Assembly: GCA_024711295.1 (NCBI GenBank)
Contig: JANJTB010000002.1
Span: forward strand, 145,804-209,803
DNA from: a bacterium
Lineage (GTDB): Bacteria; Bacteroidota; Ignavibacteria; Kapaibacteriales; UBA2268
Direction of reading: 5' to 3'
DNA: 64,000 nucleotides
This document shows, piece by piece, positions 1 to 40,207 of this stretch. How positions within the stretch are numbered: position 1 is the first letter of the stretch; every line of letters begins with the position of its first letter. Below the pieces are notes generated by a model. The model ran no database searches. It worked only from the letters and a program-made list of their open reading frames with translations, and had not been told where the DNA came from. The position numbers and the translations under genes are program-made.

Positions 1-474
1 TTAATGGTAAATAAAATTGTTCAGGACATTTTCCCAAAGATTGAAAAGAACTTACCAAATGCAAAACTTATAATTGCAGGCGCAAATCCCACAAAGGAAA
101 TTATAAATTGTAAAACTAAGAATATAGATATCATATCTAATCCATCAGATATTGTAAGAATATATCAATCTGCAGTCATTTTCCTGCACCCTCATGCAGG
201 GGGTTCAGGAATTCAGAACAAAGTACTCGAAGCGATGTCTTGCGAATGTGCTGTCATAACATCTCAAAGCGGCTCGAATGGAATTGACATAGTTAATAAT
301 GTTAACGGGTTTATAGCTAATAATGATGAAGATTTCGTTAGTTTATGCATTAATTTGCTCAATAATGAAACTCATCGCAATATTGTTGGTCAAAACGCTA
401 GAAAATATGTTGTTAACACGAAATCATGGGATAAAGTTTTCTCTGACTTGGACAATATTATTGAAGAATTATAA
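1..474 (+). CDS. Glycosyltransferase family 1, C-terminal fragment (5'-partial; the frame is open to the window edge)
   Basis: The C-terminal GT1 domain signature 'EAMSCECAVITSQ...GIDIV' (E-X7-E-like) is present. The frame is open from base 1, so the N-terminal domain lies upstream of the window. Confidence 0.6.
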   Translation, partial: LMVNKIVQDIFPKIEKNLPNAKLIIAGANPTKEIINCKTKNIDIISNPSDIVRIYQSAVIFLHPHAGGSGIQNKVLEAMSCECAVITSQSGSNGIDIVNNVNGFIANNDEDFVSLCINLLNNETHRNIVGQNARKYVVNTKSWDKVFSDLDNIIEEL

Positions 475-480
475 AAAAAA

Positions 481-501
481 TGGGCTGAATTATTCAGCCC
501 A
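481..501. terminator. Bidirectional rho-independent terminator: perfect 9-bp hairpin GGGCTGAAT-T-ATTCAGCCC flanked by an A-run and a T-run
   Basis: The inverted repeat is read directly from the sequence. It lies between the convergent genes 1..474(+) and 528..2645(-). Confidence 0.7.
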
Positions 502-527
502 TGTTAAAGATTTAGTTTGATAGAAAA

Positions 528-2645
528 CTATTTACTTAAATTGATTTTTTTAATATAAATGCCTTCATCACCCGACATTTTAATTAAATATATACCATTA
601 CCTATGCTAAATTTACTAAAGTTAATAGTATCAAAATACTCGCCTGTTTCACAATATCTATTTACTAATTCAGCAATTTCATTACCTAAAAGATCTAACA
701 TTTGTATTTTTACAAAGCCATTTTTAGTTAAGTTATATCTTATAGTGGCATGACCTTGAACAGGATTTGGGAAAATCATTAATTTTTCACTATTTATATT
801 AGCAAATTCAACAGAAGTGCCTCCCTTGGCTGTGAAACTCATCACTGGGCTGAAAGGTCCAGATCCCGATTCTGAATTGGCTTTAACTCTCCAATAATAT
901 GTTTTGTCAGATTTGAGCAAATCTTTAGGAAGTGTATAATTAACGTCCTCCCATTTAAGTTCATTTACTATATAACCCTGATCAAAACCAATTCTATCAG
1001 CAAGTTGAACATTGTATGTAGTGGCACCCGGAACTACATTCCAACTTAGTGTAGGAGTTAAGTCCGTTTCTGTTCCATCTGCAGGTCCAACTAATGTAGG
1101 AGCCGGAAGTGGGACACCAGTGTGAAACTTCCAGGATGATGTGTAAGAGCTTTCACCACCAGAATTAACGGCTTTAACTCTCCACCAATAATCAGTTTCA
1201 TTGTTTAATCTACTTGGTGGTACAACATGAAAAGTATCCGTCATGCTTGATTTTGTGTATCTTACAGAAAATCCCTCGAATGTTTCATCTCTGGAAATCT
1301 GCAATGTATAAGTTTCGGCACCGGGTACCGATGTCCAGTAAAGTAACGGTGTTGTAGAATTTGTTACGGTATTATTTGCTGGACCTGCTAAATATGGTTT
1401 GTCGGGTACCGGATAAGCTGTTGTAAATGAAAACACCTGCGACCAACCGCTCTTACCTGCATCATTCATTGATGCTACTCGCCAGTAGTATGTGGTTTCG
1501 TAATCTAATTCATTAGGGGTATAATAGTTAACTGATAAATTATTTTTATCAATAATTATCTTGCTAAAATTCTGATCTTCGCCAAGTTGAAGATGGAATC
1601 TGCTGGTGTTTGGAGTCAATGACCAGGTTATAGAATTATTTAACTTAACATATTTTGCCAAATTTTCAGGAGTCTGTGGAGTTGGGGCTGTTGGTGGTTG
1701 AGTGTGATTAATATTAGTCAACTCAAACCAGTAAGTAAAATCTTTCATTGTCCCACCAACGTTAACATTCCTGATGGTTACGGTATATTTTACATTATCA
1801 GCCAATCCATCTGCTTTCCAGCTTAGGTTGTTTGGAAATGAGCCCCACCCTTCATTATCATTTTTGACTGAGTGAACACTTACAGGATTACCTGATTCAT
1901 CTTTCATCTCGACAGTAGTACCTGAATACGTAACATTTTGGTTATTCCACAAATTTGTTTTGCTTGATAAAGCATTAAATGAAAGATAAAATGATTTGTT
2001 TACATACTCGGGCGGATAATACTCATAGGGATAAGCTATAAAGTCAAGTTGATTTTCGACGGCATTTCCATCAGTAAAATCTTGGTATAAAAATAGTGAA
2101 GCATGGAAATCAGAACTTCCACCAGATTTTGGTTTACCGTATGACTTACCAAACGAAAATCGTGTAAGGAAAGGATTCAATATTGCTCTGCGATGACCAA
2201 CTTTGTACTGACCTTCAATATCAGCGTTATGGTCATCTATCAACCAACCGACAATCGATCCTATTGCGGTGTTACCTGCACCGCCATATTCAATATTGCC
2301 TTTCATTCTGGCTTCACCACCGGCTTTTGTATAACAAGGTGTTGAAGGATTGTCAATGTGACCACCCTCGCCACTAGCTACCATATTTAAGCATCCTTCC
2401 ATCGACATTGCACTACCAAGTGCTTCGTAGGTTACTGGTTTAAGTTTGTGAAGGCTCCTGATATGATTTACTTTGTCAAGAACTTCATTGATAACACTTT
2501 GCTTCAAAGTGCCTGCGTTGCAATTATTAACATCAGGTTGAACTTCAAAATACTGCGAAAAACTAGCTTCGACAGGTTTGTCAGACGCAAATCCATTAAT
2601 CGTTAAAATGCAAATAATCGAGAAAAATGTTAATATCCCTTTCAT
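528..2645 (-). CDS. Secreted multidomain surface protein: N-terminal signal peptide, CAP/SCP-like domain, three FN3-like repeats, C-terminal T9SS sorting domain
   Basis: Hydrophobic N-terminus. The region 'GHIDNPSTPCYTKAGGEA...IVGWLIDDHNADIEG' resembles a CAP domain. Repeats of the form 'YWWRVKAVN...W' are FN3-like. The C-terminus 'FPNPVQGHATIRY...GIYLIKM' is a type IX secretion CTD. Confidence 0.55.
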   Translation of the reverse strand: MKGILTFFSIICILTINGFASDKPVEASFSQYFEVQPDVNNCNAGTLKQSVINEVLDKVNHIRSLHKLKPVTYEALGSAMSMEGCLNMVASGEGGHIDNPSTPCYTKAGGEARMKGNIEYGGAGNTAIGSIVGWLIDDHNADIEGQYKVGHRRAILNPFLTRFSFGKSYGKPKSGGSSDFHASLFLYQDFTDGNAVENQLDFIAYPYEYYPPEYVNKSFYLSFNALSSKTNLWNNQNVTYSGTTVEMKDESGNPVSVHSVKNDNEGWGSFPNNLSWKADGLADNVKYTVTIRNVNVGGTMKDFTYWFELTNINHTQPPTAPTPQTPENLAKYVKLNNSITWSLTPNTSRFHLQLGEDQNFSKIIIDKNNLSVNYYTPNELDYETTYYWRVASMNDAGKSGWSQVFSFTTAYPVPDKPYLAGPANNTVTNSTTPLLYWTSVPGAETYTLQISRDETFEGFSVRYTKSSMTDTFHVVPPSRLNNETDYWWRVKAVNSGGESSYTSSWKFHTGVPLPAPTLVGPADGTETDLTPTLSWNVVPGATTYNVQLADRIGFDQGYIVNELKWEDVNYTLPKDLLKSDKTYYWRVKANSESGSGPFSPVMSFTAKGGTSVEFANINSEKLMIFPNPVQGHATIRYNLTKNGFVKIQMLDLLGNEIAELVNRYCETGEYFDTINFSKFSIGNGIYLIKMSGDEGIYIKKINLSK

Positions 2646-25461: not shown

Positions 25462-27504
25462 TTATTTAATTACATTCAAAGGCTTTGTAATAACACCGCT
25501 AATTGTTCTTATCTGAACAAAATATATGCCGTTAGCCAAATTATTAACATCAACAGTAAACTCATAGAATCCCTGATTTTGAGTTAAACCTTCAGCGATA
25601 GTATTAATCAGTGAGCCGGTTGCATCATATACCTGAATGGTAACAATTTCATCAGAAGGTAACTGATATATTACCGATGACACATTGCTTGCCGGATTAG
25701 GGAACACATTTACATCAAGAATCCAATTGTGTGAATCTTCAACTGATGCTAATGTTTTAGCTTCATATAGCTTGTTAATTGGGTCATATTCAGCCCATGG
25801 CAAATCCCATCTCAGAGCAATAACAGAGCTGAATGCACCCCTGTAGCTAACTTTATCAAAGAACTCATCATCAATCCTTACTATATTATTTCCATTGCTG
25901 AATGAGGCATTAGTAAGGTAGTTTGCATTATTCTGAGGTACTGCGTTAAATGATGTGCCGATAACAAACGGGTTAGTCAGCGCAGCATTCACAGGTGAAG
26001 ATACATCAAAGAAGTTATTGAAACCGGAAGTTTCGTTCCAGTTAGCTGCTACACCCGGGTTTGTACCATCAAGAGTCAAAGTTCTTCCTTTGATACCGAA
26101 TAAGCTATTATTTTTGTACATTACCGAATCTTTTGAAGCAGCTGTCTGACCGGGCAGACTTAACAATTCAAGACCACGAGGCCATCCCAAAATAACTGAG
26201 TTAAATATGGAAGCTCTGGCATTTCTGCGGATTTGCGCAGCAGCACCAAAACGTGTGTGATAAGTTCTGTCAGCAGCACCTGTAGATGATGGTGTCCAAC
26301 TGGTATCCTGTAAAGGTCCTATAGCTGTTACATTCGAGAATATTGGCTTCGTGAGAGGTTCGTTATAGTTGCCTGTCGAATTATTATCTATTTCCCATGC
26401 TTGTGAAGTCGAAACGTCGGCTCTGTCTTTGAATCTCTGTACCAAGACGTGCTGCACTCTGCCGCTAAAACCATTATCACAATCCAGGTCATCATCGAGT
26501 GTACCGTTAGATATAAGGTATTTAGCATCAACAGTTCCACCAAACCATTCATAAGCATCATCATTGGCATAGCTCACCTGAATGTTACGAATTACAGTTC
26601 CACGTCCGACACCACCCAAAGTTAAAGAGTTTAATTCTTGGTTAGGAGCTGCAGCAATACCTGCAAATTCAATTCTTAAATATTCCAGATGTCCACTATT
26701 ATCATTATCATCGGGGCTGTTTCCGCCTCCAAACCATCCGCGAACTTTATTGGCATCAGCGATACCACCTTCTAATTGTGCCTCGCCGCCTGCATGGTTA
26801 GTAGCTGCTTTTCCGCAGATCAACACACCACCCCAATCACCACCACGGCGCTGTCCCGGTGCTGCTGAGCTTGTCATCACAATAGGGTCTTCCTTTGTGC
26901 CCATAGCGAATATTTTTCCACCTCTGTTAACACAAATTGCAGAGTTTTGGCCAACAGTATCACCAATTATTATCGTTCCTCTTTGTATATGTAATTCTCC
27001 ACCATTGTCAACGTAAACATATCCGTCCAAGCCATAAATCTTGGTTCTGGAAAGGAATACTTTGCCAGCTATCGGATCTTTAAGGATCGAGTCAGGTCTG
27101 GTCACTGCCGGTTGTTCAATTGTAAATGGGTTGTCGTTTCTATCCTGTACGGCTTCGTTCAGTGTTCCATCTTCGTTTACGAGTATCATTCTTACATAAC
27201 CGCTTGTAGTACCGACTGCAGGAGTACGGAAACCACCGGCATATACACCGCGGCGTGCTGCACTATCCAGAATGTTGGATGCCGATGGTAGATTTTGCCA
27301 TGGACCATCAGTTGATGTTGCAAACTGGAATGTCCATTTTGCACGGTATGTACCTGTTGTATCCCATCTCAAGTCTATCGAAGCACCCGGGCGAAATACC
27401 TCGCCACCAGCAGGATTAATGAGCTTACACGAGCTCGGTTGTTGAGAATATGCTGCAACACCGATACTCATTATCGCAAAGAAAATTAGAAGATTACGTA
27501 ACAT
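25462..27504 (-). CDS. Secreted surface protein with a T9SS C-terminal sorting domain
   Basis: Signal peptide. The C-terminus 'VFPNPASNVSSVIYQLPSDEIVTIQVYDATGSLI...GIYFVQIRT' is a T9SS CTD. The Gly/Asn-rich middle is possibly a beta-helix. Confidence 0.55.
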   Translation of the reverse strand: MLRNLLIFFAIMSIGVAAYSQQPSSCKLINPAGGEVFRPGASIDLRWDTTGTYRAKWTFQFATSTDGPWQNLPSASNILDSAARRGVYAGGFRTPAVGTTSGYVRMILVNEDGTLNEAVQDRNDNPFTIEQPAVTRPDSILKDPIAGKVFLSRTKIYGLDGYVYVDNGGELHIQRGTIIIGDTVGQNSAICVNRGGKIFAMGTKEDPIVMTSSAAPGQRRGGDWGGVLICGKAATNHAGGEAQLEGGIADANKVRGWFGGGNSPDDNDNSGHLEYLRIEFAGIAAAPNQELNSLTLGGVGRGTVIRNIQVSYANDDAYEWFGGTVDAKYLISNGTLDDDLDCDNGFSGRVQHVLVQRFKDRADVSTSQAWEIDNNSTGNYNEPLTKPIFSNVTAIGPLQDTSWTPSSTGAADRTYHTRFGAAAQIRRNARASIFNSVILGWPRGLELLSLPGQTAASKDSVMYKNNSLFGIKGRTLTLDGTNPGVAANWNETSGFNNFFDVSSPVNAALTNPFVIGTSFNAVPQNNANYLTNASFSNGNNIVRIDDEFFDKVSYRGAFSSVIALRWDLPWAEYDPINKLYEAKTLASVEDSHNWILDVNVFPNPASNVSSVIYQLPSDEIVTIQVYDATGSLINTIAEGLTQNQGFYEFTVDVNNLANGIYFVQIRTISGVITKPLNVIK

Positions 27505-27534
27505 TATAAAACCTTATTATATAATACAAAAACA

Positions 27535-30414
27535 TTAATTCAATCTATATCCAAGACTTAACCCAAAAGTTGTACCTCTCAGGTTTGATGCAAATGTTCT
27601 TCCACCCTGCTCCCAGATTAAGTTTTGGTTTAATAAATCTCTTACAATTAATTTTAAATCCATTTTGTTGTCGAATATAGGCTGTGATATTGACAAATCA
27701 ATAATATCTCTTGGTAATTCATATATATGGGGATCTTCGAAACTGTACATTCCTACAAGTGCTACCTGCTGAATTCTTCTGCCATAGGTATTATAAGCAA
27801 TATTTACAGAAGTTTGTGTTTCGGGATTCATATAGAATAGCCCAAGATTTAGTGAATATGGAGATTGACCCCACATTTGTCTGGTATCAACAGCATTACC
27901 CTGGCGAACTGTAATTTCTGAGTTAATGTAGGAGAAGTTTACATTAAGTGCGAAATTCCTCAAATAGTCAGAAATAAAGTTGAAGCTTTTTCTGAATTCG
28001 ATTTCAACACCGTAATTGTAAGCATCACCTTCAGCATTGGCAAATGACTTGCCAAGCTCACTCTGAAGCGGCTGAATAGTTTCTTCAATGGCATTTTCGA
28101 ACTTTTTGTAGAACAAACTTGCTGATATTACTTCACCCGGATTAGGGAAAATTTCGTATCTTACATCAAAATTCTGAATAAGAGCACGTTTAAGATTTGG
28201 ATTACCAAATACAAGAATAGTATTTACAAAGTCATAAAATGCAAACGGAGCAAATTCTCTCAATGATGGTCTTGCAAGAGTCTGGCTTGCAGATGCTCTG
28301 AAATTGGAGATTTCATTAATTCTCCACATAAGATTTAATGATGGCAAGAGGTCGTTGTAAACATTTTTGATATCTACTGCCTGGTCGTTCACATCAAATG
28401 AATTTAAGGCTTGGGTGCTTTGTTCGTATCTGACACCACCAATAAATCTGAAGCTTTCGCTACATAAATCGAACGGAGCGTCAACCATCAAATAACCTGA
28501 GTAAACAGACTCATTAGCTAAATATGAATCACTTGCTTTGGTTTCTTCGGATATTCTCAATCCATCTTCTACCCTGAAGTTGTTTCTGTTCAGAAGTGCC
28601 TGAGGATTAGTTATATCGTTCATCAAAGCTTCAATTTCAGGATTTAGAGCTGAGCCGGTAGGTGGTGGAATTACAGTAAATGACCTTGATGAAAAATCTC
28701 TGTCTTTATATTCACCCAATGAGCCAAACTTTAATTTCATACTGCTTGTAAGTGGCAAAGTAAAGTCAATCTTTGCTGAGAATGTATTATCGTGCATATC
28801 AGAGAAGAATCTGCCTAATCTTGCACCATCACCCTGCTCAGTTTGTAATAACTGTATTGTATATGGAGTATTCGGGTCAATTTCCAAATCGAAAAGATTT
28901 CTGTCGAACCTGATTTTTCTGAAGTCCGGTTCGTATCTGTTGGAGTAAGAATAACCGGTATTCCATTGAATATGTAAATTTTGGAACTCTAATGTATGCT
29001 CGCCACCAAGCTGAGTAGAGAGTAATTCTTTCTCAACATATTGAGAACTGAAATTTCGATAGTCAATAAACTGATATGCAGAATCTTGTCCGTGAAGTCT
29101 GGTTGTTTCTTCGTCTGCACCGCGATTATATACGTTTCTGAAGCTAATAGATGATGAACTACCTAATTTGTATGCCATATTCACAAGAGCACCCATACTT
29201 ACCGAACGTGTTGCTTGTGTGCCATTTGAGCGGAAGAATGTACCTCCATCATACATCAAAGCATTTCGCTCTATATCATTAATATTGAAATTCTGTCCCC
29301 AGTTAGCAGATGCCAAAAGTCCAAACTCATTATCAAACAAAGTGTAGTTATTTGAGAAATTGATACCTATGCTTGAATTTGCTAAAGGTCCTACTGTCAT
29401 AGCATTCTGATTCCAGTTACCATCGTTGAATGATTGCATCATGGATTCATATTTTGCTTTTGCACCTGTGTTATCATTAGGGTTCAGAGCAGAAGTTCTA
29501 AGAGCATCCAACTCACGGCGAGTAGATGGCATACCCGCAGGCATGCTTCGACTGCCATCATCTATACCAAGCCAATCTGTGCTGCCGCCTGCAGTCTGTA
29601 AAAACTGATTCCCTTTCAACGAGGTGTTCGTATTATAAGAATTTGAATATGAGACTTTGAGCGAGTGACCTTCGGGGAAGTCAACTGTATTAAGTTGGAC
29701 TAATCCCCCTGCAAAATTACCCGGTAAGTCTGGGGTGAATGATTTAGCAATATTCACATTCTGAAGGAATTCTGACGGAAACATATCAAAAGCAAAAGCT
29801 TTCTTGTCGGGTTCGGTTGAGCTAAGCGAGGCACCATTTAATGTAGTGTTACTGTAACGCTCGCTTACACCACGCACATAAACAAATTTGTTATCCACGA
29901 GTGTAACACCGGATACCCTTTTGAGAGATTGACCTGCATCAGAATCAGGAAGTCTCGACATTTCCTGCTGACTGATACCATCACTCACCTGAGCGGAATT
30001 TTTTCTTGCTGATAATATTGCAGATTCATTATCATTTATTCTGCGGGCATCAACAAATACTTCTTCTGTTAATTTTTTCTCTACACCTAATACTATTCTA
30101 CCGATATTGGCGGGTTTGCCTGATTGCACATCTATTCCCGCTATTTCCCTTGCTTCGTAGCCCACAAATGTAATTTTAAGTGTATATGTACCTGCCGGTA
30201 AATTCTTGATTTTAAATTCTCCTTTTACGTCAGAATATGCACCAAATTTGGTATTCTGTACCATAATAGTGGCGCGGCGAAGTGGCTCACCTGACTCTTT
30301 GTCTATTACTGTTCCGGTTATTTCACTATTTTGGGCACTCAAATTAACGATGCCCGCAATGAAAAATACAATGAGCAGGATTATTCTGTTAGTTTTCAAA
30401 TTAAATACCTCCAA
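27535..30414 (-). CDS. TonB-dependent outer-membrane receptor with an N-terminal CarbopepD_reg domain
   Basis: 'ITGTVIDKESGEPL...GEFKIKNLPAGTYTLKITFVGYE' is CarbopepD_reg. A plug and a large barrel follow. The length is 959 aa. Confidence 0.7.
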   Translation of the reverse strand: MEVFNLKTNRIILLIVFFIAGIVNLSAQNSEITGTVIDKESGEPLRRATIMVQNTKFGAYSDVKGEFKIKNLPAGTYTLKITFVGYEAREIAGIDVQSGKPANIGRIVLGVEKKLTEEVFVDARRINDNESAILSARKNSAQVSDGISQQEMSRLPDSDAGQSLKRVSGVTLVDNKFVYVRGVSERYSNTTLNGASLSSTEPDKKAFAFDMFPSEFLQNVNIAKSFTPDLPGNFAGGLVQLNTVDFPEGHSLKVSYSNSYNTNTSLKGNQFLQTAGGSTDWLGIDDGSRSMPAGMPSTRRELDALRTSALNPNDNTGAKAKYESMMQSFNDGNWNQNAMTVGPLANSSIGINFSNNYTLFDNEFGLLASANWGQNFNINDIERNALMYDGGTFFRSNGTQATRSVSMGALVNMAYKLGSSSSISFRNVYNRGADEETTRLHGQDSAYQFIDYRNFSSQYVEKELLSTQLGGEHTLEFQNLHIQWNTGYSYSNRYEPDFRKIRFDRNLFDLEIDPNTPYTIQLLQTEQGDGARLGRFFSDMHDNTFSAKIDFTLPLTSSMKLKFGSLGEYKDRDFSSRSFTVIPPPTGSALNPEIEALMNDITNPQALLNRNNFRVEDGLRISEETKASDSYLANESVYSGYLMVDAPFDLCSESFRFIGGVRYEQSTQALNSFDVNDQAVDIKNVYNDLLPSLNLMWRINEISNFRASASQTLARPSLREFAPFAFYDFVNTILVFGNPNLKRALIQNFDVRYEIFPNPGEVISASLFYKKFENAIEETIQPLQSELGKSFANAEGDAYNYGVEIEFRKSFNFISDYLRNFALNVNFSYINSEITVRQGNAVDTRQMWGQSPYSLNLGLFYMNPETQTSVNIAYNTYGRRIQQVALVGMYSFEDPHIYELPRDIIDLSISQPIFDNKMDLKLIVRDLLNQNLIWEQGGRTFASNLRGTTFGLSLGYRLN

Positions 30415-30618: not shown

Positions 30619-33168
30619 CTATTCTTCTCTTAAAGCGGCAGATGGTGACGATTTGCTCATTTTATAGGCAGGATATATACCAGCAAGTATGGCTGCGAGA
30701 ATAGCTACTATAAGCCCTTGTAATGCATATTCGGGGATAAAGTGGTAATCTATACTCCACCCAAATGAGCGGCGGTTTATGATATGTATCAATATATATG
30801 CAAGAATATTTCCGAGTGGTAATGCAAGAACGCCTGAAATCAGCCCCATAATTCCTGTCTGCAATATAACCATTTTCCAGAGTTGTGAGGGTAATAATCC
30901 TATTGCTCTGAGTACGCCGAGCTCTCTTGCTTTTTCGAGCTGTAATGCCATCAATGCGCTAAGAATACCAATAAACGATACTATTATCGAAAGCAATTGC
31001 AATACATTGGTTATTAGGAATGTTCTGTCGAATATCTCTACTGATGAATCAATAAGTGCTCTGTTCGACCTGACGATGAAATTGACATCACCGGCAGCCT
31101 TTTTCATATTGCTGATTACACTGTCAATATTTTTTTTATCATCAACAAAAACGGCTAATCCCGATAGCAGTGAGTCATTGAAGTATTTTTGATAAGTATT
31201 CAGCTGCATCATTATCAGCCCGATATCCGAGCTGTAATCGTAGAATACACCTATTACTCCGAATTTCTTATTGCCGTAATTAGTGGGCAATTCAACAAAA
31301 TCCCCGACATAGATTCGATTTTTGAATGAATAAGACTCTGATACAAATACCCCCTCTTCGTGGTTGAATTTTTTCCAGAGAATATCATTATGTATCTTGC
31401 TGTCCCTGAAGCTTTCGTAGTTAAAATTCTGAACTTTGGCAGCGAGAATATGCTTAATCGAACCGTTATGATTGATTTGATTTTCCTTGTAATAATTAAT
31501 TGCCTTTACATTCGGCAACCTGCTTATTGAGTCACCCAGAGCCAAACTGAAAGTACCGTCATTAAATCTCGACACCATTGTTGGCACAGAGGCATAAATA
31601 TCTGCCTTGAGCCTTAAATTAAGCCAATCAACAACAGTAATTCTGAAGCTGCTTACCATAGTACCGACACCTATTGCAGCTGATACAGCTATACTAAGAG
31701 CTGCCACAGAGATTGTAGTGCGACTTAGTTGGGTTGATATTCCTCGTGCTGCCATTTTACCTATCGAGCCAAAAACCACTTTCATCAAAGGTGATAATAC
31801 TTTCATACCAAGAAGTAAAGCAATTGGCGACAGAAATGCAAATGCAATGATTACAGGAGCAATTCCCAGATAACTTATATATATGGAATTGCTGTCGTAA
31901 AGGAGTACTGCTGTTCCGACAAGTAATAGTATTAAAGCGTATAATACAAATTTTGAGGTTTTTGTGGTAATAGACTGCTCTGACTCCGACCTTGTCATGA
32001 TACTCCTCGGAGTAACCGACGAAGCATCTCTGGCTGGCTTGTATGCCGATAATACCGAGGCACTTATCCCCAACACGATACCTTTAATAATGCTTTCGGC
32101 AGAGATTGTGATTTTTTGGACCTGCAATACAAAATACATATCATTGATGGTTTTTGTTACCAGATTAATGATACCATTTCCGAGTACTATACCTCCAATA
32201 ATGCCTAATGTTGTGCCTACCAGCCCCAATACAACAGCTTCGAACAGGATTAGCTTAAATATCTCGTTTTTTGTAACACCTATCGAGCGCAGCAAACCTA
32301 GTAACTTCTGACGGCGGACTACTGAGAACGTCATAGTATTATATATCAAAAACATGCCAACTATCAGTGCCAATAAGCTCATGGCAGTAAGATTTACCCT
32401 GAATGACTCCGTCATTTGCTTGCCCGATTCCGACCTCATTTCGGATTTCTGAATTCTTACTGAAGAGGGCAATATTGACTTGATATTATTCATCATCAGA
32501 GTATCGTCATCGGGTATAATCAAGTCTATCCTGCTGATATGGTTACCAATATCTGTTAAATCCTGAGCATTCGATATATCAGTTATTAGTATGTTTTCGA
32601 TGATTTTTGCCTGATTATCATTCTTTGGACTTATCATTCCTATTACAACAAGCGACTTACTCTTTCCGTCAACCTCAATATATATGGAATCTGATATTTT
32701 GAGGTCTAATTTCTCTGCTGTCTTCGACGACAACAGAACTCCACCTTTTGTTACTATAAACCGAGAAAGATCGAAACCATCACCGGAATTGAATTTGCCC
32801 GTATAATTTCTAAAATTCTCCTCATAAATTGGGTCAATACCCAGAATTGTAAATATTGATGTATCTTTACTCTTAACCTTAACAAATTTTTCGACCACAG
32901 GTGCCGAATTCACTTTATTGAATCTAAGACGGAGCTCAGTAAATACTGAATTCGGAATACCGGGTGGATTAGCAATTATCTGATGAGTAGCTTTGCCCGA
33001 AACACTTTCCATAGACAAAGTAAAGGCACTGTAAGCGCTTTGGTTGGCTATATCAATAGATATCACTACAGCAATACCCAGCGAAATACCGATTATTGAC
33101 AGCAGTGTTTGCCATGGATTTCGAAGTGAATAATTTATTCCGGACTTAAATAATATTGGGCTAATCAT
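30619..33168 (-). CDS. ABC exporter permease with two FtsX domains (MacB/LolE-like)
   Basis: 849 aa, with a transmembrane segment at the N-terminus, a large periplasmic domain and FtsX-type four-helix bundles, duplicated. Confidence 0.65.
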   Translation of the reverse strand: MISPILFKSGINYSLRNPWQTLLSIIGISLGIAVVISIDIANQSAYSAFTLSMESVSGKATHQIIANPPGIPNSVFTELRLRFNKVNSAPVVEKFVKVKSKDTSIFTILGIDPIYEENFRNYTGKFNSGDGFDLSRFIVTKGGVLLSSKTAEKLDLKISDSIYIEVDGKSKSLVVIGMISPKNDNQAKIIENILITDISNAQDLTDIGNHISRIDLIIPDDDTLMMNNIKSILPSSVRIQKSEMRSESGKQMTESFRVNLTAMSLLALIVGMFLIYNTMTFSVVRRQKLLGLLRSIGVTKNEIFKLILFEAVVLGLVGTTLGIIGGIVLGNGIINLVTKTINDMYFVLQVQKITISAESIIKGIVLGISASVLSAYKPARDASSVTPRSIMTRSESEQSITTKTSKFVLYALILLLVGTAVLLYDSNSIYISYLGIAPVIIAFAFLSPIALLLGMKVLSPLMKVVFGSIGKMAARGISTQLSRTTISVAALSIAVSAAIGVGTMVSSFRITVVDWLNLRLKADIYASVPTMVSRFNDGTFSLALGDSISRLPNVKAINYYKENQINHNGSIKHILAAKVQNFNYESFRDSKIHNDILWKKFNHEEGVFVSESYSFKNRIYVGDFVELPTNYGNKKFGVIGVFYDYSSDIGLIMMQLNTYQKYFNDSLLSGLAVFVDDKKNIDSVISNMKKAAGDVNFIVRSNRALIDSSVEIFDRTFLITNVLQLLSIIVSFIGILSALMALQLEKARELGVLRAIGLLPSQLWKMVILQTGIMGLISGVLALPLGNILAYILIHIINRRSFGWSIDYHFIPEYALQGLIVAILAAILAGIYPAYKMSKSSPSAALREE

Positions 33169-33170
33169 TG

Positions 33171-33848
33171 TTAATTCACATTATCAATCAGGAGTTTGGA
33201 GTCTTTTATCCTAATAATATAATCTGCGAGGCCAATTACATCCTTACTATGTGTAGCCATTATCATGGTTTTGTTTTGTTTACGGACAAGATTATCCAGG
33301 AGCTCTACAATAGACTTTCCTGTTTCGTAGTCAAGATTGCCTGTTGGCTCGTCAGCAAGAACAATTTTGGGATTATGTATCAAAGCTCGAGCTATTGCTA
33401 TACGCTGCTGCTCACCACCGGAAAGCTTGTCAGGATATGCCGCATACCTGTCCTTCAATCCGATTTTGTCGAGCAAATCCATTGCATATAACTCATCATC
33501 TTTGTCAAGACTTTTGACTAACTCTCTTGGCAAGAGCAAATTTTCGAGTACATTTAATGTAGGTATAAGATTAAAAAACTGAAAAACGAAGCCGATATTG
33601 TTACGTCTGAACAGGGTTCGTCCCTTTTCGTCAAGAGATGACACGTCTATTCCGTTGATGGTGATTTTGCCAGAGCTCGCAGCATCTATTCCACTTATCA
33701 AATTCAATAATGTAGATTTGCCTGAGCCACTCCTGCCAAACATCACATAAATCTTTCCTTCTTCGAATTCAAAATCAACATTATCCAAAACTACATGATT
33801 CGAATTACCCTCACTGAATACTCTGCTCAACTTTTCTAATTTTATCAT
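33171..33848 (-). CDS. ABC transporter ATP-binding protein (LolD/MacB family)
   Basis: '[18 protein letters not shown]', '[15 protein letters not shown]' and '[11 protein letters not shown]' are present. Confidence 0.8.
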
Positions 33849-33903
33849 ATTTCCGGCGCTAAAAGTATCAAAAAAATATCGTATTTCAACTAATCGAAAT
33901 TTA

Positions 33904-34500
33904 TTATGGCTTGATGTAATCTGTGAATATTACACCATTCAGATGGTCAATTTCATGCTGGAATATTACTGCCGTAAACCCTTCTACCATCTCAATCTGA
34001 TTCTGCCTGTACTGCGTTTCGTAAGCTATCAAAATTGCATACGAGCGGGTGCTGAGTGTATCCATCTTATTTGGTACCGACAGGCAGCCCTCACGGCAAT
34101 CCTGCTTCATTTCCGAATACTTAATAATCTTGGGGTTAATATATGCCTCAAAAGGTTTTTCGGGCTTGTCGAACCTCTGAACAATGATTATATTCTTCAA
34201 TATACCTATCTGAGGCGCGGCAATACCCACACCCGTGGTGGCACTATCCTGCACGGTAGCAATCATTCTGTCAATTAAATTTGCCAAATTCCTATTTCCT
34301 GACTCAAACACCAAATTCTCCGACTTAGTACGAAGCAATATAGAGTCCTGCAGGTTTGTGACCTGAAGCACCCTAAACGGTGTTTTCGGGGATTTTGAGT
34401 TAATCATATTGATTTCGGATTCTGTAAAATTACTGTTTTGCGACATTGATAATTGGAATAGTACTGTAAACAAAATACTTAGCGTTAAAATGAATTTCAT
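33904..34500 (-). CDS. def: Peptide deformylase, with a 30-aa signal-peptide-like N-terminal extension
   Basis: 'GVGIAAPQIG', 'EGCLSVP' and 'QHEIDHLNG' are the three PDF motifs. 'MKFILTLSILFTVLFQLSMSQ' precedes the conserved core. Confidence 0.8.
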   Translation of the reverse strand: MKFILTLSILFTVLFQLSMSQNSNFTESEINMINSKSPKTPFRVLQVTNLQDSILLRTKSENLVFESGNRNLANLIDRMIATVQDSATTGVGIAAPQIGILKNIIIVQRFDKPEKPFEAYINPKIIKYSEMKQDCREGCLSVPNKMDTLSTRSYAILIAYETQYRQNQIEMVEGFTAVIFQHEIDHLNGVIFTDYIKP

Positions 34501-34729
34501 GCTCTACACCCAAAAAATAGAAAAAGACGGATTAAATATGAATTATTTATTTTTCAAATTCTTATTTGTCAGACACAATTATTGAAGTTTTTTATATATA
34601 ATACTTATAAATCATTGGCTTAGGATTGTTATCACAGTGATACCCCCACCCCCAAAATATTACCAATATAGTTTTAAAATTGTTTTAAAATGGGTTAATT
34701 GTTATAAGTAGCTGATATGCTTACATTTG

Positions 34730-34816
34730 CGGAGAGGGAGGGATTCGAACCCTCGGTACAGTTACCCGTACAACGGTTTTCGAGACCGCCACATTCAACC
34801 ACTCTGCCACCTCTCC
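34730..34816 (-). tRNA. tRNA-Ser (anticodon CGA), class II with a long variable arm
   Basis: The reverse complement GGAGAGGTGGCAGAGTGG...GGTTCGAATCCCTCCCTCTCCG folds as a cloverleaf with anticodon loop CTCGAAA. Confidence 0.85.
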
Positions 34817-36380: not shown

Positions 36381-38009
36381 TTATAATAATCCCTGACTAA
36401 TTTTCTGTCTTAATTTTGACCGGATATGAATTGCAATCATATTAAGCATTACAACAATAATAATCAGCAACAAAGTAGTCATAAATAGCATTGGGAATCC
36501 TGCCTCTACGTTAGGTGACTGAAAGCCAACATCGTATATATGAAATCCTAAATGCATAAACTTACGCTCAAGATGAAAGAACGGAAAAGTAGAATCCAGA
36601 GGTAAATCGGGAGCTAACTTAACAACTCCGGTGATCATCAAGGGTGCAACTTCGCCAGCTCCCCTTGCAATAGCAAGTATCAATCCTGTCATAATTCCGG
36701 GTGTAGATGCAGGAAGCAGAATTTTTGATACCATTTGCAATTTGGTAGCTCCTAATGCAATTGATGCTTCTCTTATTTCAGTAGGTATTGAACTCAATGC
36801 CTCCTCAGTGGATACTATAACTACAGGCACAGTAAGTAATGCAAGAGTAAGAGATGCCCAAAGAATGCCACCAGTGCCCCAAACAGGTGCAGGCGAATAT
36901 TCAGGGTAAAAAATTGAATCTATCGTACCCCCTACCCCATAGATAAAGAAACCCAAACCAAAAATACCAAAAACTATTGATGGAACTCCAGCAAGATTGT
37001 AAACAGTAATCCTTATTATTTTAACCCACCAACCGTTTCCTGCATATTCATTAAGGAATAAAGCAGTTACTACTCCAATCGGAACAGCTATAATACTCAT
37101 CAGAATAACCATCATAACTGTACCGAATATTGCCGGAAAAATTCCTCCTTCTGTATTTGATTCTCTTGGCTCGAGTACAACGAACTCCCATAATTTTTTA
37201 GATATTAACTTAATTTTTGGAATAATGCCCAAATCATTTGGATAATAGTAGCTATGAATATTGATTGCTGGAATTATATGATTATTACCGCTGATGTCAC
37301 TAACAAGCAGAGCAAAAGAATTGGACTTCTGATAAAGTTCGTCAATAAGCTCCATATATTCAGAATACTTACTTTCAAGACTTTGAATTTGTTCCTCAAG
37401 CTGCTGCCTTAATTCATTCTTACCTGCCTTATTATCTCTTCGGGATTGATAATCTAATTTATTTATTTTACGCCGGATATTATCAATTTTACTATTCAGA
37501 TTACCAATTTTTTCAACTTCATACACTCTAATATCAGATTTAATAGAATTTGAAATATCAAATAAATCAAGCAAAACTTCTTTATCAGGTTTAGAATAAA
37601 AATAAATAGTATCAGTATTCTTGACAATTCCGTTCAAATATCCGATGAAGTTACCGTTTTGCATTCTCTCAATAATAATAGGATGATTTTTGTCTATATT
37701 ATTTTTTTTAATTTTTGACTTTTCTAATCTCACAAAATCATAACCGTAAATTTCACGATTACCAACTTTTACCAAAATTGATTCATCAATACCACCAAAC
37801 TCATCTGTTACATTTTGAACGCTAATAATTTGTCCAAGAATCATAGAATCGCCAAGAATCTGAATTCTATTGATTTTTCCGGGTACAAAATAGTCGGTTG
37901 CACCAACAGTACTGATATAAATAATACCAGAAAATATCACAAGAATAACTCCGAGAGCAATTCCAGCTGTCCAAATAAAGAAAGTACTTGTATCGAATAA
38001 GTTTTTCAT
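36381..38009 (-). CDS. pstA: Phosphate ABC transporter permease PstA, elongated (542 aa) with an extra periplasmic coiled-coil domain
   Basis: The C-terminal ~280 aa form the PstA transmembrane core ('ATKLQMVSKILLPASTPGIMTGLILAIARGAGE'). The N-terminal ~260 aa are extra. Confidence 0.75.
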   Translation of the reverse strand: MKNLFDTSTFFIWTAGIALGVILVIFSGIIYISTVGATDYFVPGKINRIQILGDSMILGQIISVQNVTDEFGGIDESILVKVGNREIYGYDFVRLEKSKIKKNNIDKNHPIIIERMQNGNFIGYLNGIVKNTDTIYFYSKPDKEVLLDLFDISNSIKSDIRVYEVEKIGNLNSKIDNIRRKINKLDYQSRRDNKAGKNELRQQLEEQIQSLESKYSEYMELIDELYQKSNSFALLVSDISGNNHIIPAINIHSYYYPNDLGIIPKIKLISKKLWEFVVLEPRESNTEGGIFPAIFGTVMMVILMSIIAVPIGVVTALFLNEYAGNGWWVKIIRITVYNLAGVPSIVFGIFGLGFFIYGVGGTIDSIFYPEYSPAPVWGTGGILWASLTLALLTVPVVIVSTEEALSSIPTEIREASIALGATKLQMVSKILLPASTPGIMTGLILAIARGAGEVAPLMITGVVKLAPDLPLDSTFPFFHLERKFMHLGFHIYDVGFQSPNVEAGFPMLFMTTLLLIIIVVMLNMIAIHIRSKLRQKISQGLL

Positions 38010-40207
38010 CAGTTCATCTTATTCAATGTTTTTCTTTTTAATTTCATTCTGATTAATTCAGCCATTGTATTGATAATGAATGTAAAAACAAACAACAGAC
38101 TTGCAGATAAAAATAATATTCTGTACAAAGTACCACCAACAGGTGCCTCGGGTATCTCGATTGCAATATTAGCCGACAAGGACCTCAATCCTGTAAACAA
38201 ACTCCAATCATTTATTGGAGTATTTCCAGCAACCATCAGTACTATCATTGTTTCTCCTATCGCGCGAGCAAATGCAAGCATTATTGCCGAAAAAATACCT
38301 GATGAAGCATAAGGCAAAATAACTCTGTATGCAGTCTGCCAATTATTTGCTCCTAATGCATAAGATGACATTATTAAGCTTTTTGGCACTATATTAATTG
38401 AATCTTCGCTAAGAGTAAATATCATCGGAATTATGGATATACCTAATGCAAATCCGACAATTATCCCGTTGCGCTGCTCATAATGAATACCCATGTTAAC
38501 ATTAAGCCAACTCACAAAATCATTATCCACCAATGATTTAATTATAGTATCAGCTATAAAATATGATGTTAATAATAAAGTTGCAACAGAAATAATATTT
38601 ATGATTGACTCTTTCGTTGAATAAAATTTATTATCTATTTTTAATTTTAAAAAATTTAAAATGATAATACCTAATATCATAATTAATGGGAAAATTATCA
38701 AAAATGTAATAATCACTGGAACATAGAATTCCAGAATCGGAGCTAACCATAATGATACAATAAAACCTATTACTACAGTTGGAATAGCTGTCATTATCTC
38801 AACAAAGTTTTTAATGTAATTCTTTAGTTTGTCATTCAAATACAACGAGGTGTACAATGCTGCAAGTACAGCTAATGGCACAGCAAAAATCATTGCAAAA
38901 ATCGTCCCCTTCAAGGTTCCCGTTATCAATGGAATCAAAGAGTATTTAGATTCGTAATCATCAGTACCACCTGATGATTGCCATATATAATCGCTTTGTA
39001 GGTAACCCTCATATTTAACTTTACTGAATAAAGTATTAATATTTACATCAATATTCGACTTCTCAATTTCATAAATCTTGATTTGATTATTTGTATGTGT
39101 AAGAGCTAATTTGCCATTTTTGGTAATCGAAAGTGAATTGATTTCATTATGGCCATTTTCATTTGCAATATTAATTACACCCTTATCAAATGGCTGGTAA
39201 TATAATTCAGTATACCCGCCTTCAAATATCACGAAAAAACTCTTATCAATGTTTGATGCAATTACATTTTTAGCTGATAGATTTCCACTTTCATATCTTT
39301 TGGAAAATTTTAGTGAAAATGGAATTATAACATCAGAGCTGTTAATAAATTCAAGTAAAAAAACTCCCCTGTCTGTTGCGCAAATTACACTTTGCTCACT
39401 ATTCGAAAAATCAATATTTGTGATCTCTCCTGATAGTTTGATTTGATTAACAAACATATATGAGCTGTCATCCCGTTTAAAATAAAGAACATTATTTGAT
39501 GTTGTTATTAATAAATTCTCTAATCTGCTATCTGTTAATATCTTCCCTACAACTCCCAAAGTTGTGTCGTAATCAATTCTAAAAGTGTTGAATATTTTTG
39601 AAGAATCAAGTGGATCGGTAGTTTTATCAGTCAGCTTGATAGTACATAAGGTATCGGAATTGTTTATTTGGCATAAAAAGTAATTACCATCAACACTTCT
39701 TTTGATTTGCACTAATTTGGGATTACCAAGTCGAACATCAGGAACTTTATCAATATAAAAAAACTTATCAACTTCATCATTCCTCACACTATGATTAAAT
39801 ACTATTTTATACAGTTCACCTGATATGTTCTCAAGTAATACTATTTTATCATCTTTGCTTTTGATAGCATCATTTACTGATACTCCAAGATCATTATGAT
39901 ACACATTCTTGTTGGATTTAATTTCGAATATGCTGATAGTACCAGATGAATCAATGTAATAATAGTAAGTATTAGAAATAAAGCCGCTAACAAGTATCTT
40001 ATTTTCAGTTTTATGACTAAGGATATTTTTCGAGCTTACCGGTTTGAATAAAGGCAGAGACTGTATAACAACAAATGCAAGAATACCAATAACAGCAATC
40101 AGAGTAATAATCCCTCCCCCAAAAATTAAGTATTTTGCTATACTATCGCTTAAGAGAGCTTTGAAAAGCTTGTAATTCTTACTCTTGATATTTATATTTT
40201 TGTCCAA
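38009..40207 (-). CDS. pstC: Phosphate ABC transporter permease PstC, elongated (732 aa) with a large N-terminal periplasmic domain
   Basis: The C-terminal ~300 aa form the PstC core ('SSYALGANNWQTAYRVILPYASSGIFSAIMLAFARAIGETM'). An N-terminal transmembrane segment is followed by a ~400-aa beta-rich domain. Confidence 0.75.
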   Translation of the reverse strand: MDKNINIKSKNYKLFKALLSDSIAKYLIFGGGIITLIAVIGILAFVVIQSLPLFKPVSSKNILSHKTENKILVSGFISNTYYYYIDSSGTISIFEIKSNKNVYHNDLGVSVNDAIKSKDDKIVLLENISGELYKIVFNHSVRNDEVDKFFYIDKVPDVRLGNPKLVQIKRSVDGNYFLCQINNSDTLCTIKLTDKTTDPLDSSKIFNTFRIDYDTTLGVVGKILTDSRLENLLITTSNNVLYFKRDDSSYMFVNQIKLSGEITNIDFSNSEQSVICATDRGVFLLEFINSSDVIIPFSLKFSKRYESGNLSAKNVIASNIDKSFFVIFEGGYTELYYQPFDKGVINIANENGHNEINSLSITKNGKLALTHTNNQIKIYEIEKSNIDVNINTLFSKVKYEGYLQSDYIWQSSGGTDDYESKYSLIPLITGTLKGTIFAMIFAVPLAVLAALYTSLYLNDKLKNYIKNFVEIMTAIPTVVIGFIVSLWLAPILEFYVPVIITFLIIFPLIMILGIIILNFLKLKIDNKFYSTKESIINIISVATLLLTSYFIADTIIKSLVDNDFVSWLNVNMGIHYEQRNGIIVGFALGISIIPMIFTLSEDSINIVPKSLIMSSYALGANNWQTAYRVILPYASSGIFSAIMLAFARAIGETMIVLMVAGNTPINDWSLFTGLRSLSANIAIEIPEAPVGGTLYRILFLSASLLFVFTFIINTMAELIRMKLKRKTLNKMN

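Follow-up and report, generated by a model that had tools for sequence, protein, structure and literature searches.

A predicted exported peptide deformylase of Kapaibacteriales and the large signal-bearing clade to which it belongs

Peptide deformylase (PDF), a target of antibiotics, is the textbook case of an enzyme that works co-translationally in the cytosol, bound to the ribosome. The Escherichia coli enzyme Def is docked on the ribosome by its C-terminal helix (established knowledge, also covered in PMC12690207), and nearly half of bacterial genomes carry a second PDF gene according to the 2025 survey of accessory PDFs given in the same paper. The text of this survey holds no term beginning with "Bacteroid" and no lipoprotein or periplasmic PDFs. 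We likewise found no paper on exported, periplasmic, lipoprotein or signal-peptide PDFs in the open-access literature, a search scope in which absence is not proof. Here we describe a PDF gene within a 64,000-nt stretch of a Kapaibacteriales genome (assembly GCA_024711295.1, contig JANJTB010000002.1, positions 145,804 to 209,803), referred to as the window and numbered from its first letter. The open reading frame (ORF; 33904..34500, ATG start) encodes 198 amino acids and lies on the minus strand, as do all other window features given below. Its product is very probably an exported PDF paralog, and the gene counts as an ordinary member of a large exported-PDF clade. The kind of enzyme is known; what is new is the compartment, together with the substrates that it implies.

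Deformylase domain and N-terminal export signal

The catalytic domain (residues 46-198; 33907..34365) was assigned by Pfam, NCBIfam and PDB sequence and fold matches. PF01327 matched residues 46-197 (E=3.3e-37, 127.9 bits vs a Pfam cutoff of 22.8), and the protein scored 121.8 bits with TIGR00079, for which the equivalog cutoff is 103.95. The original prediction, made by a model from the letters of this stretch, had claimed three intact catalytic motifs. Translation and an alignment with 24 relatives, across which all three are invariant, confirmed them as GVGIAAPQ (motif 1, residues 90-97; 34210..34233), EGCLS (motif 2, residues 137-141, with the metal ligand Cys139; 34078..34092) and QHEIDH (motif 3, residues 181-186, with the metal ligands His182 and His186 and the catalytic Glu183; 33943..33960). 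Together the motifs supply the one Cys and two His that bind the metal as well as the catalytic Glu and Gln. The residues lining the Met side-chain pocket (S1') of E. coli Def have conservative equivalents in the alignment, and this retention is consistent with specificity for N-formylmethionine (fMet). In a PDB sequence search, the nearest solved structures were all PDFs, the best being that of cyanophage S-SSM7 (3uwa; E=1e-20, ~34% identity), and none of them contained a signal peptide. When the AlphaFold2 (AF2) model was compared with the PDB by Foldseek, the top 50 matches were again all PDFs (probability 1.00, target-normalised template-modelling scores 0.56-0.75). The 198-aa protein combines a modelled PDF fold with an intact, canonical active site, and deformylase activity itself is a prediction. 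A second cysteine, C135 (34096..34098), lies four residues ahead of the metal-ligand Cys139 (QDCREGCLS); it is kept in at least 90% of the exported-PDF family and replaced by Arg in a few members.

Ahead of the catalytic domain, residues 1-20 form a predicted signal peptide (MKFILTLSILFTVLFQLSMS; 34441..34500), after which the chain continues with QNS. Its layout comprises the n-region M-K, then the 15-residue h-region FILTLSILFTVLFQL, then S-M-S↓Q, with small residues at -3 and -1 (S18 and S20) and Gln at +1. The Kyte-Doolittle 10-residue maximum of the h-region is 2.52, compared with 1.33 in E. coli Def, and the AF2 model places a helix across residues 2-19. Signal-peptide calls, here and among the relatives, come from heuristic scoring; on this basis, cleavage by signal peptidase I (SPI) at S20↓Q21, exposing Q21, is most likely. 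The exposed Gln at +1 would follow the Q-rule for SPI substrates of Bacteroidetes, as described in PMC5837995, a rule that may not hold in Kapabacteria. No Cys occurs before residue 135 and a lipobox Cys is absent, and the protein would be an SPI variant, the less common form within a mostly lipoprotein family.

The choice of start codon bears directly on this signal. A GGGTG sequence (34507..34511) stands 6 nt before the ATG, in the intergenic region between the upstream tRNA-Ser and the PDF start (34501..34728). The original prediction had correctly noted this sequence and used it as a Shine-Dalgarno (SD) argument for the first ATG, an argument that carries little weight in either direction: SD-like 4-mers precede just 4 of the 26 long ORFs in the window (background 8%), and the start codon is for that reason not decidable from SD motifs. 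The evidence for the long form is instead comparative. The public gene call of a 99%-identical ortholog (P0001, 180 aa) starts at the equivalent of Met19 (34444..34446), and its contig encodes the same MKFILTLSILFTVLFQLS upstream of the called start (locus L081, 136..732). A 62%-identical relative of 185 aa (P0002) was likewise called from an internal Met, with an uncalled MKYIYNLLILVCYFVFINNNLIS upstream (locus L092, 957..1586). The "missing" signal peptides of P0001 and P0002 are gene-call artefacts. The exact 198-aa sequence was absent from a collection of 15 billion proteins.

In a set of 121 proteins, made up of the query and its 120 best database homologs (50-66% identity), 111 have a hydrophobic N-terminus. 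A Cys just after the hydrophobic stretch, as in lipoproteins, is present in 94 of the 120 homologs, and a small-residue↓Gln SPI site in 7. We also examined 80 genome loci in which ORFs were extended upstream independently of any gene caller, and the heuristic found an in-frame signal-type stretch in 78 of them (60 with Cys, 16 Gln-type, 2 other). A clear small-residue↓Gln site is visible in about a dozen of the Gln-type loci, while four Sphingobacterium loci and L072 look misclassified; the two loci scored "none" are scoring failures, since L071 does contain a lipobox and in L078 the motifs went undetected. After inspection, about 75 of the 80 loci with a signal peptide is the safer figure. 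Of the 150 best representatives of 50%-identity clusters, 125 contain a signal-type stretch. Judging by their N-termini, most of the remaining proteins among the 120 homologs look like truncated gene calls, two of which were verified. A test named beforehand had considered that orthologs might start at the internal Met. Instead, a signal peptide or lipobox is retained by homologs at 42-66% identity, whereas the family does not conserve a Met close to the cleavage site. The extension, initially described as signal-peptide-like, is borne out by a signal in nearly all relatives and appears to be a genuine, evolutionarily conserved export signal, not a start-codon artefact.

In Bacteroidota, an acidic lipoprotein export signal marks surface exposure. 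In this family, many of the residues that follow the lipoprotein Cys are Ser, Lys, Thr or Asn, and Asp and Glu are scarce, which suggests periplasm-facing rather than surface-exposed lipoproteins. In four Sphingobacterium loci (L046, L051, L053 and L063), the PDF frame is open far upstream of position 10001 and includes a conserved segment (…RCPQPP…AGEKKYTGPKNE…); the PDF domain may there form the C-terminal end of a longer polypeptide.

An exported clade apart from housekeeping def

Signal and core are joined by a family-specific mature N-terminal segment (residues 21-45, QNSNFTESEINMINSKSPKTPFRVL; 34366..34440), delimited by the alignment and the AF2 secondary structure. The family pattern in this segment is F-[ST]-x-x-Q-x-x-L-I...P-M-R-V, with F25, R43 and V44 invariant and a short helix at residues 27-33 of the AF2 model; cytosolic def has no equivalent. 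The conserved core had originally been placed at "FRVLQV", about 30 residues after the hydrophobic stretch, but PFRVLQV begins at residue 41-42, ~21 residues after the predicted cleavage site. The two kinds of protein also differ in length at both ends: in the exported clade a median of 96 residues precede motif 1, vs 42 in canonical Bacteroidota def, and the median tail after HExxH is 19 aa vs 39 aa. With its tail of 12 residues, the query is predicted to lack the ribosome-binding C-terminal helix.

A neighbour-joining tree of a small sample, whose canonical side consisted only of Rikenellaceae def and E. coli Def, separated the exported set and canonical Rikenellaceae def as reciprocally monophyletic groups (29.7% mean identity), with the canonical Rikenellaceae def nearer to E. 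coli Def (37.6% identity). A HMMER scan of 1.84 billion representatives yielded 57 clusters at 50% identity with E<=1e-30, and all 150 representatives listed score E<1e-22. Named members come from Flavobacteriaceae, Saprospiraceae, Sphingobacterium, Cytophagales, Rikenellaceae (Alistipes, Tidjanibacter), Prevotellaceae, Kapabacteria and Marinimicrobia, and the family occurs widely among free-living taxa of marine and soil habitats. For high-GC members, a cluster look-up gave almost no taxon names. The databases label its members simply as "peptide deformylase". One match, P0316 (2112 aa, "17 stretches"), was rejected as a repetitive non-PDF protein with a spurious match. Coexistence with a housekeeping enzyme was seen in Tidjanibacter locus L078, where a canonical 183-aa def without signal peptide and with a basic C-terminal tail lies beside ruvX (44..595), ~9.5 kb from the exported paralog; canonical def of this type is abundant in Tidjanibacter. 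A second, specialised PDF paralog had been put forward as an alternative in the original prediction, and the separate clade, short tail and conserved signal bear it out: the protein is predicted to be such a paralog and not the housekeeping def.

Further signs of periplasmic adaptation were found in the mature protein. The general O-glycosylation motif on extracytoplasmic proteins of Bacteroidota is D(S/T)(A/I/L/M/T/V) (PMC10897501). The query contains three such sequons, D52-S-I, D85-S-A and D147-T-L (Asp codons 34345..34347, 34246..34248 and 34060..34062), all at positions that are invariant or nearly so in the family alignment. The first two sites are present in 116/119 and 103/119 exported proteins, and the mean number of sequons per protein is 3.4 in the exported set vs 0.22 in 114 cytosolic def. 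This suggests glycosylation of a periplasmic enzyme, although the residues may instead be conserved for structural reasons.

Fusion proteins in the family (P0255, P0317, P0294, P0305, P0279, P0287, P0315, P0328, P0365, P0323, P0263, P0390, P0270 and P0012) join the PDF to Peptidase_M1, an S33/S15-type serine hydrolase, an M15 D-Ala-D-Ala dipeptidase, a class A beta-lactamase-family domain, metallo-beta-lactamase folds, AXE1, DUF3089, AhpC/thioredoxin-like, DUF1684, DUF6250, TSCPD or DUF4440. Secretion or a periplasmic location is typical of the enzyme families represented by many of these partners, and those of the aminopeptidase type would suit a scheme of "unblock, then trim". Within the top 120 homologs, six clusters at 90% identity contain the DUF4440 fusion, and one of the six lies on a 5.1-Mb contig. 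P0250 is an apparent tandem PDF.

Genomic neighbourhood

The range 33171..34500, originally treated as a single feature, spans two minus-strand genes: the PDF ORF and, at 33171..33848, a 225-aa LolD/YbbA/DevA-like ATPase of the ATP-binding cassette (ABC) type with an ABC_tran domain. It is followed by an 849-aa Type VII ABC permease with two FtsX and two MacB_PCD domains in duplicated arrangement (30619..33168) and, downstream, by a TonB-dependent receptor (27535..30414). Upstream of the PDF lie tRNA-Ser(CGA) (34729..34816), then phoU and pstB. An exact-sequence look-up identified the neighbouring proteins as GAB1371650 to GAB1371655; the G+C content of the window is 34.8%. No fmt, ruvX or second PDF gene was found within the 64 kb.

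The 55 nt that separate the PDF stop codon from the start of the ATPase gene (33849..33903) contain no terminator-like fold (minimum free energy -6.3 kcal/mol, z = 0.31). A consensus scan gave no promoter-like match within 34501..34728, and the region-wide count of 26 matches, with 23.5 expected, is background. Given the lack of a terminator-like fold in the gap and promoter-like matches at background level, co-transcription of the PDF and ABC genes is possible in this organism. An operon or functional coupling with a LolD/MacB-type exporter, as originally proposed, was not recovered in any relative beyond the species level. The order PDF-ATPase-permease-TonB-dependent receptor is kept in only two contigs, whose PDFs are 99% identical. 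Using tblastn of the window ATPase, permease, TonB-dependent receptor and PhoU against flanks of ±10 kb, we found none of the four adjacent to the PDF in the 80 genome loci (0/80 for the ABC ATPase or FtsX permease). An ABC neighbour of this kind was also missing in five closer relatives (58-66% identity), namely P0010 (Kapabacteria, 58% identity; TetR and AhpC genes adjacent), P0008 (hypothetical genes), P0004 (rpmG and cytochrome c), P0002 (a formyltransferase-fold gene on the opposite strand) and P0003, where the adjacent ATPase is MlaF-like and unrelated, not an ortholog. A search from the ABC side in metagenome contigs gave three loci, of which the one with a usable upstream flank (L099, 54% identity) had no PDF in the 1160 bp upstream. 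The permease moreover fails the YbbP equivalog (17.4 bits vs a cutoff of 999). The ABC ATPase and FtsX permease thus look like a lineage-specific neighbourhood whose adjacency to the PDF is probably incidental.

Several other features of these loci were recorded. The formyltransferase-fold gene at the P0002 locus (L092, 1590..2189, minus strand) is a 199-aa Formyl_trans_N gene convergent to the exported PDF and 3 nt from its stop, a single case that may be coincidence. Apparent pst synteny at the P0003 locus (L094) was rejected, the upstream ABC_tran gene being just 26% identical to the window PstB and not its ortholog. Downstream of the ABC pair, and on one strand with it and the PDF gene, are the TonB-dependent receptor (CarboxypepD_reg, Plug and barrel) and a beta-helix protein with a Por_Secre_tail of the type IX secretion system (window 25462..30414; L081 4238..8732). 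In the upstream pst operon (36381..40207), the permease genes are unusually long: the PstC-like ORF has 732 aa, and the PstA-like ORF has 542 aa with an N-terminal extension of ~250 residues that resembles a coiled coil.

Proposed role, alternatives and related systems

On the whole, we consider it probable that the gene encodes a Sec-exported second PDF that is cleaved by SPI and deformylates fMet-peptides in the periplasm. The N-terminal Sec signal would target the preprotein across the inner membrane, which would place the catalytic domain outside the cytoplasm; SPI would cut after Ser20, and the mature enzyme would act in the periplasm. There it would take N-formyl groups off arriving fMet-peptides, a specific function to which we give an even chance. 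Deformylation would unblock these peptides for amino- and dipeptidyl-peptidases of the periplasm, which require an unmodified N-terminal amino group, and Bacteroidota depend on periplasmic exopeptidases with this requirement. Substrates could be peptides of lysed bacteria or organelles entering via TonB-dependent transporters, or fragments of formylated signal peptides. According to PMC12690207, deformylation in the cytosol largely misses exported proteins. In work on the Q-rule, pyroglutamate capping is tied to the stability of extracytoplasmic proteins (PMC10653852).

Several points weigh against this proposal. On the biochemical side, we know of no formylated periplasmic substrate, and the native Fe(II) of PDF is oxygen-labile. 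The export call has heuristics and conservation as its basis, and the AF2 model is only moderate (pLDDT, the predicted local distance difference test, 79). The Q-rule is known for Bacteroidetes and may not apply in this lineage, just as the O-glycosylation motif is known from Bacteroidota and Kapabacteria may not have the system. The fusions are mostly singleton clusters, some of them possibly assembly or gene-call artefacts. Only one PDF is present in the 64-kb window. Finally, all-vs-all clustering of flanking ORFs in the 80 loci revealed no conserved neighbour that would indicate a pathway, the best family occurring in 14/80 loci as local synteny.

Two alternatives concern where the protein resides. 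Translation from Met19, or from both Met1 and Met19, would yield a cytosolic 180-aa housekeeping or accessory PDF, as the gene callers' choice of Met19 in P0001 and of an internal Met in P0002 might imply; the GGGTG before Met1 is weak in a genome where SD use is rare, and the window holds no other PDF. We nevertheless regard a start-codon artefact or dual isoforms as unlikely, because the signal-peptide codons are present and open in both contigs, it is the signal or lipobox, not a Met close to the cleavage site, that the family conserves, the clade shares ~30% identity with cytosolic def and is without the long C-terminal tail, and the conserved O-glycosylation sequons fit an extracytoplasmic protein. 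The original prediction had spoken of a "membrane-anchored or exported" PDF. Of these, export stands, given the conserved signal, and cleavage of the signal peptide is likelier than permanent anchoring. As an uncleaved signal anchor, the N-terminal transmembrane helix would tether the PDF to the inner membrane, facing either the periplasm or the cytoplasm, where it would act on nascent membrane proteins. The 15-residue h-region and the single AF2 helix over residues 2-19 could serve such a tether, but the h-region is broken by T, S, T and Q and short for a stable transmembrane helix, the S-M-S↓Q site has small residues at -3/-1 and Gln at +1, Lys2 predicts an N-in/C-out orientation, and the lipobox Cys of most relatives implies cleavage by signal peptidase II and an extracytoplasmic location. 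An anchored form is in our view highly improbable.

Two further alternatives accept an extracytoplasmic PDF and assign it another task. The adjacent Type VII ABC transporter might pull a formylated hydrophobic peptide out of the inner membrane and pass it to the PDF as its periplasmic hydrolase partner, in the manner of YbbAP-TesA, for which a complex of a Type VII ABC transporter and a periplasmic hydrolase is a precedent (PMC12646458). The shared strand, the 55-nt gap without terminator-like fold, the gene order kept in two near-identical contigs and the two FtsX plus two MacB_PCD domains of the permease are compatible with this partnership. It is made very unlikely by its absence from all 80 genome loci and from the relatives at 58-66% identity, by the 54%-identical ABC ortholog L099 without a PDF in 1160 bp upstream, and by the YbbP equivalog score far below its cutoff. 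In a more far-reaching version, which we hold to be a long shot, the Kapaibacterium lineage would have recruited an exported PDF to a Type VII ABC "extract and hydrolyse" module acting on signal-peptide remnants or formylated membrane-active toxins, and the whole clade would represent an unrecognised periplasmic step of formyl-peptide processing. Alternatively, the exported PDF could serve defence or detoxification by inactivating N-formylated antimicrobial peptides, or as a periplasmic decoy capturing actinonin and other PDF inhibitors on their way to the cytosolic enzyme. Tolerance to actinonin can be increased by accessory PDFs (PMC12690207), the window gene adjoins a MacB/LolD-type exporter, and some family members are fused to class A beta-lactamase-family, metallo-beta-lactamase-fold, M15 (VanX-like) or AXE1 domains. 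However, the family has no conserved resistance-gene context and is widespread in free-living marine and soil taxa, a stoichiometric decoy would demand very high expression, and the fusions to M1 aminopeptidase, S33/S15 hydrolase, thioredoxin-like and DUF4440 domains point to general periplasmic metabolism. A defensive role therefore seems rather unlikely.

The exported-PDF clade appears to be uncharacterised within the literature searched. A large, ancient clade of secreted PDFs, mostly lipoproteins, that coexists with normal def in at least one genome would imply formylated peptides as a substrate pool outside the cytoplasm of Bacteroidota-group bacteria. This would matter for peptide scavenging, as the periplasmic exopeptidases of Bacteroidota need a free N-terminus, and for host interactions, as the carriers include the gut bacteria Alistipes, Tidjanibacter and Prevotellaceae and formyl peptides are ligands of host formyl-peptide receptors. 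It also affects how PDF-inhibitor susceptibility and genome counts of "accessory PDFs" are read. For annotation, public calls that start past the signal peptide hide the export signal in the near-identical ortholog and in at least one further relative.

Compared with known systems, the protein shares its fold and three motifs with canonical type 1B PDFs (E. coli Def and the Bacteroidota def by ruvX), retains their S1' pocket conservatively and passes the TIGR00079 cutoff. Unlike them, it has a signal peptide and a conserved segment of ~25 residues before the core, a tail of 12 aa vs ~39 aa, conserved O-glycosylation sequons and an identity of only ~28-30%; it falls into a separate clade, and the window offers no def-fmt or ruvX-def context. 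Organellar PDFs (plant PDF1A/1B, Plasmodium, human mitochondrial) likewise carry an N-terminal targeting peptide ahead of the PDF domain, and the structural matches of the query include AtPDF1B and PfPDF. Organelles, however, run their own fMet-initiated translation, so that an organellar PDF still acts co-translationally, whereas the periplasm has no ribosomes and an exported PDF would need a substrate other than nascent chains. Phage PDFs (Synechococcus phage S-SSM7, 3uwa/3uwb; Vibrio phage Vp16, 5mtc) resemble the query in their short C-terminus but lack a signal peptide and work in the cytoplasm of the host. The YbbAP-TesA system of E. coli (PMC12646458) also places a secreted hydrolase gene by a LolD-like ATPase and a duplicated FtsX/MacB_PCD permease; the window differs in that the hydrolase has a PDF fold and not an SGNH fold, the co-location is limited to one species-level lineage and the permease scores below the YbbP cutoff. 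Accessory bacterial PDFs such as Vibrio cholerae Def2 are likewise second PDFs beside a housekeeping def, as seen here in the Tidjanibacter locus. Those surveyed in PMC12690207 are cytosolic and often located on mobile elements, whereas the exported family is chromosomal and occurs in varied contexts.

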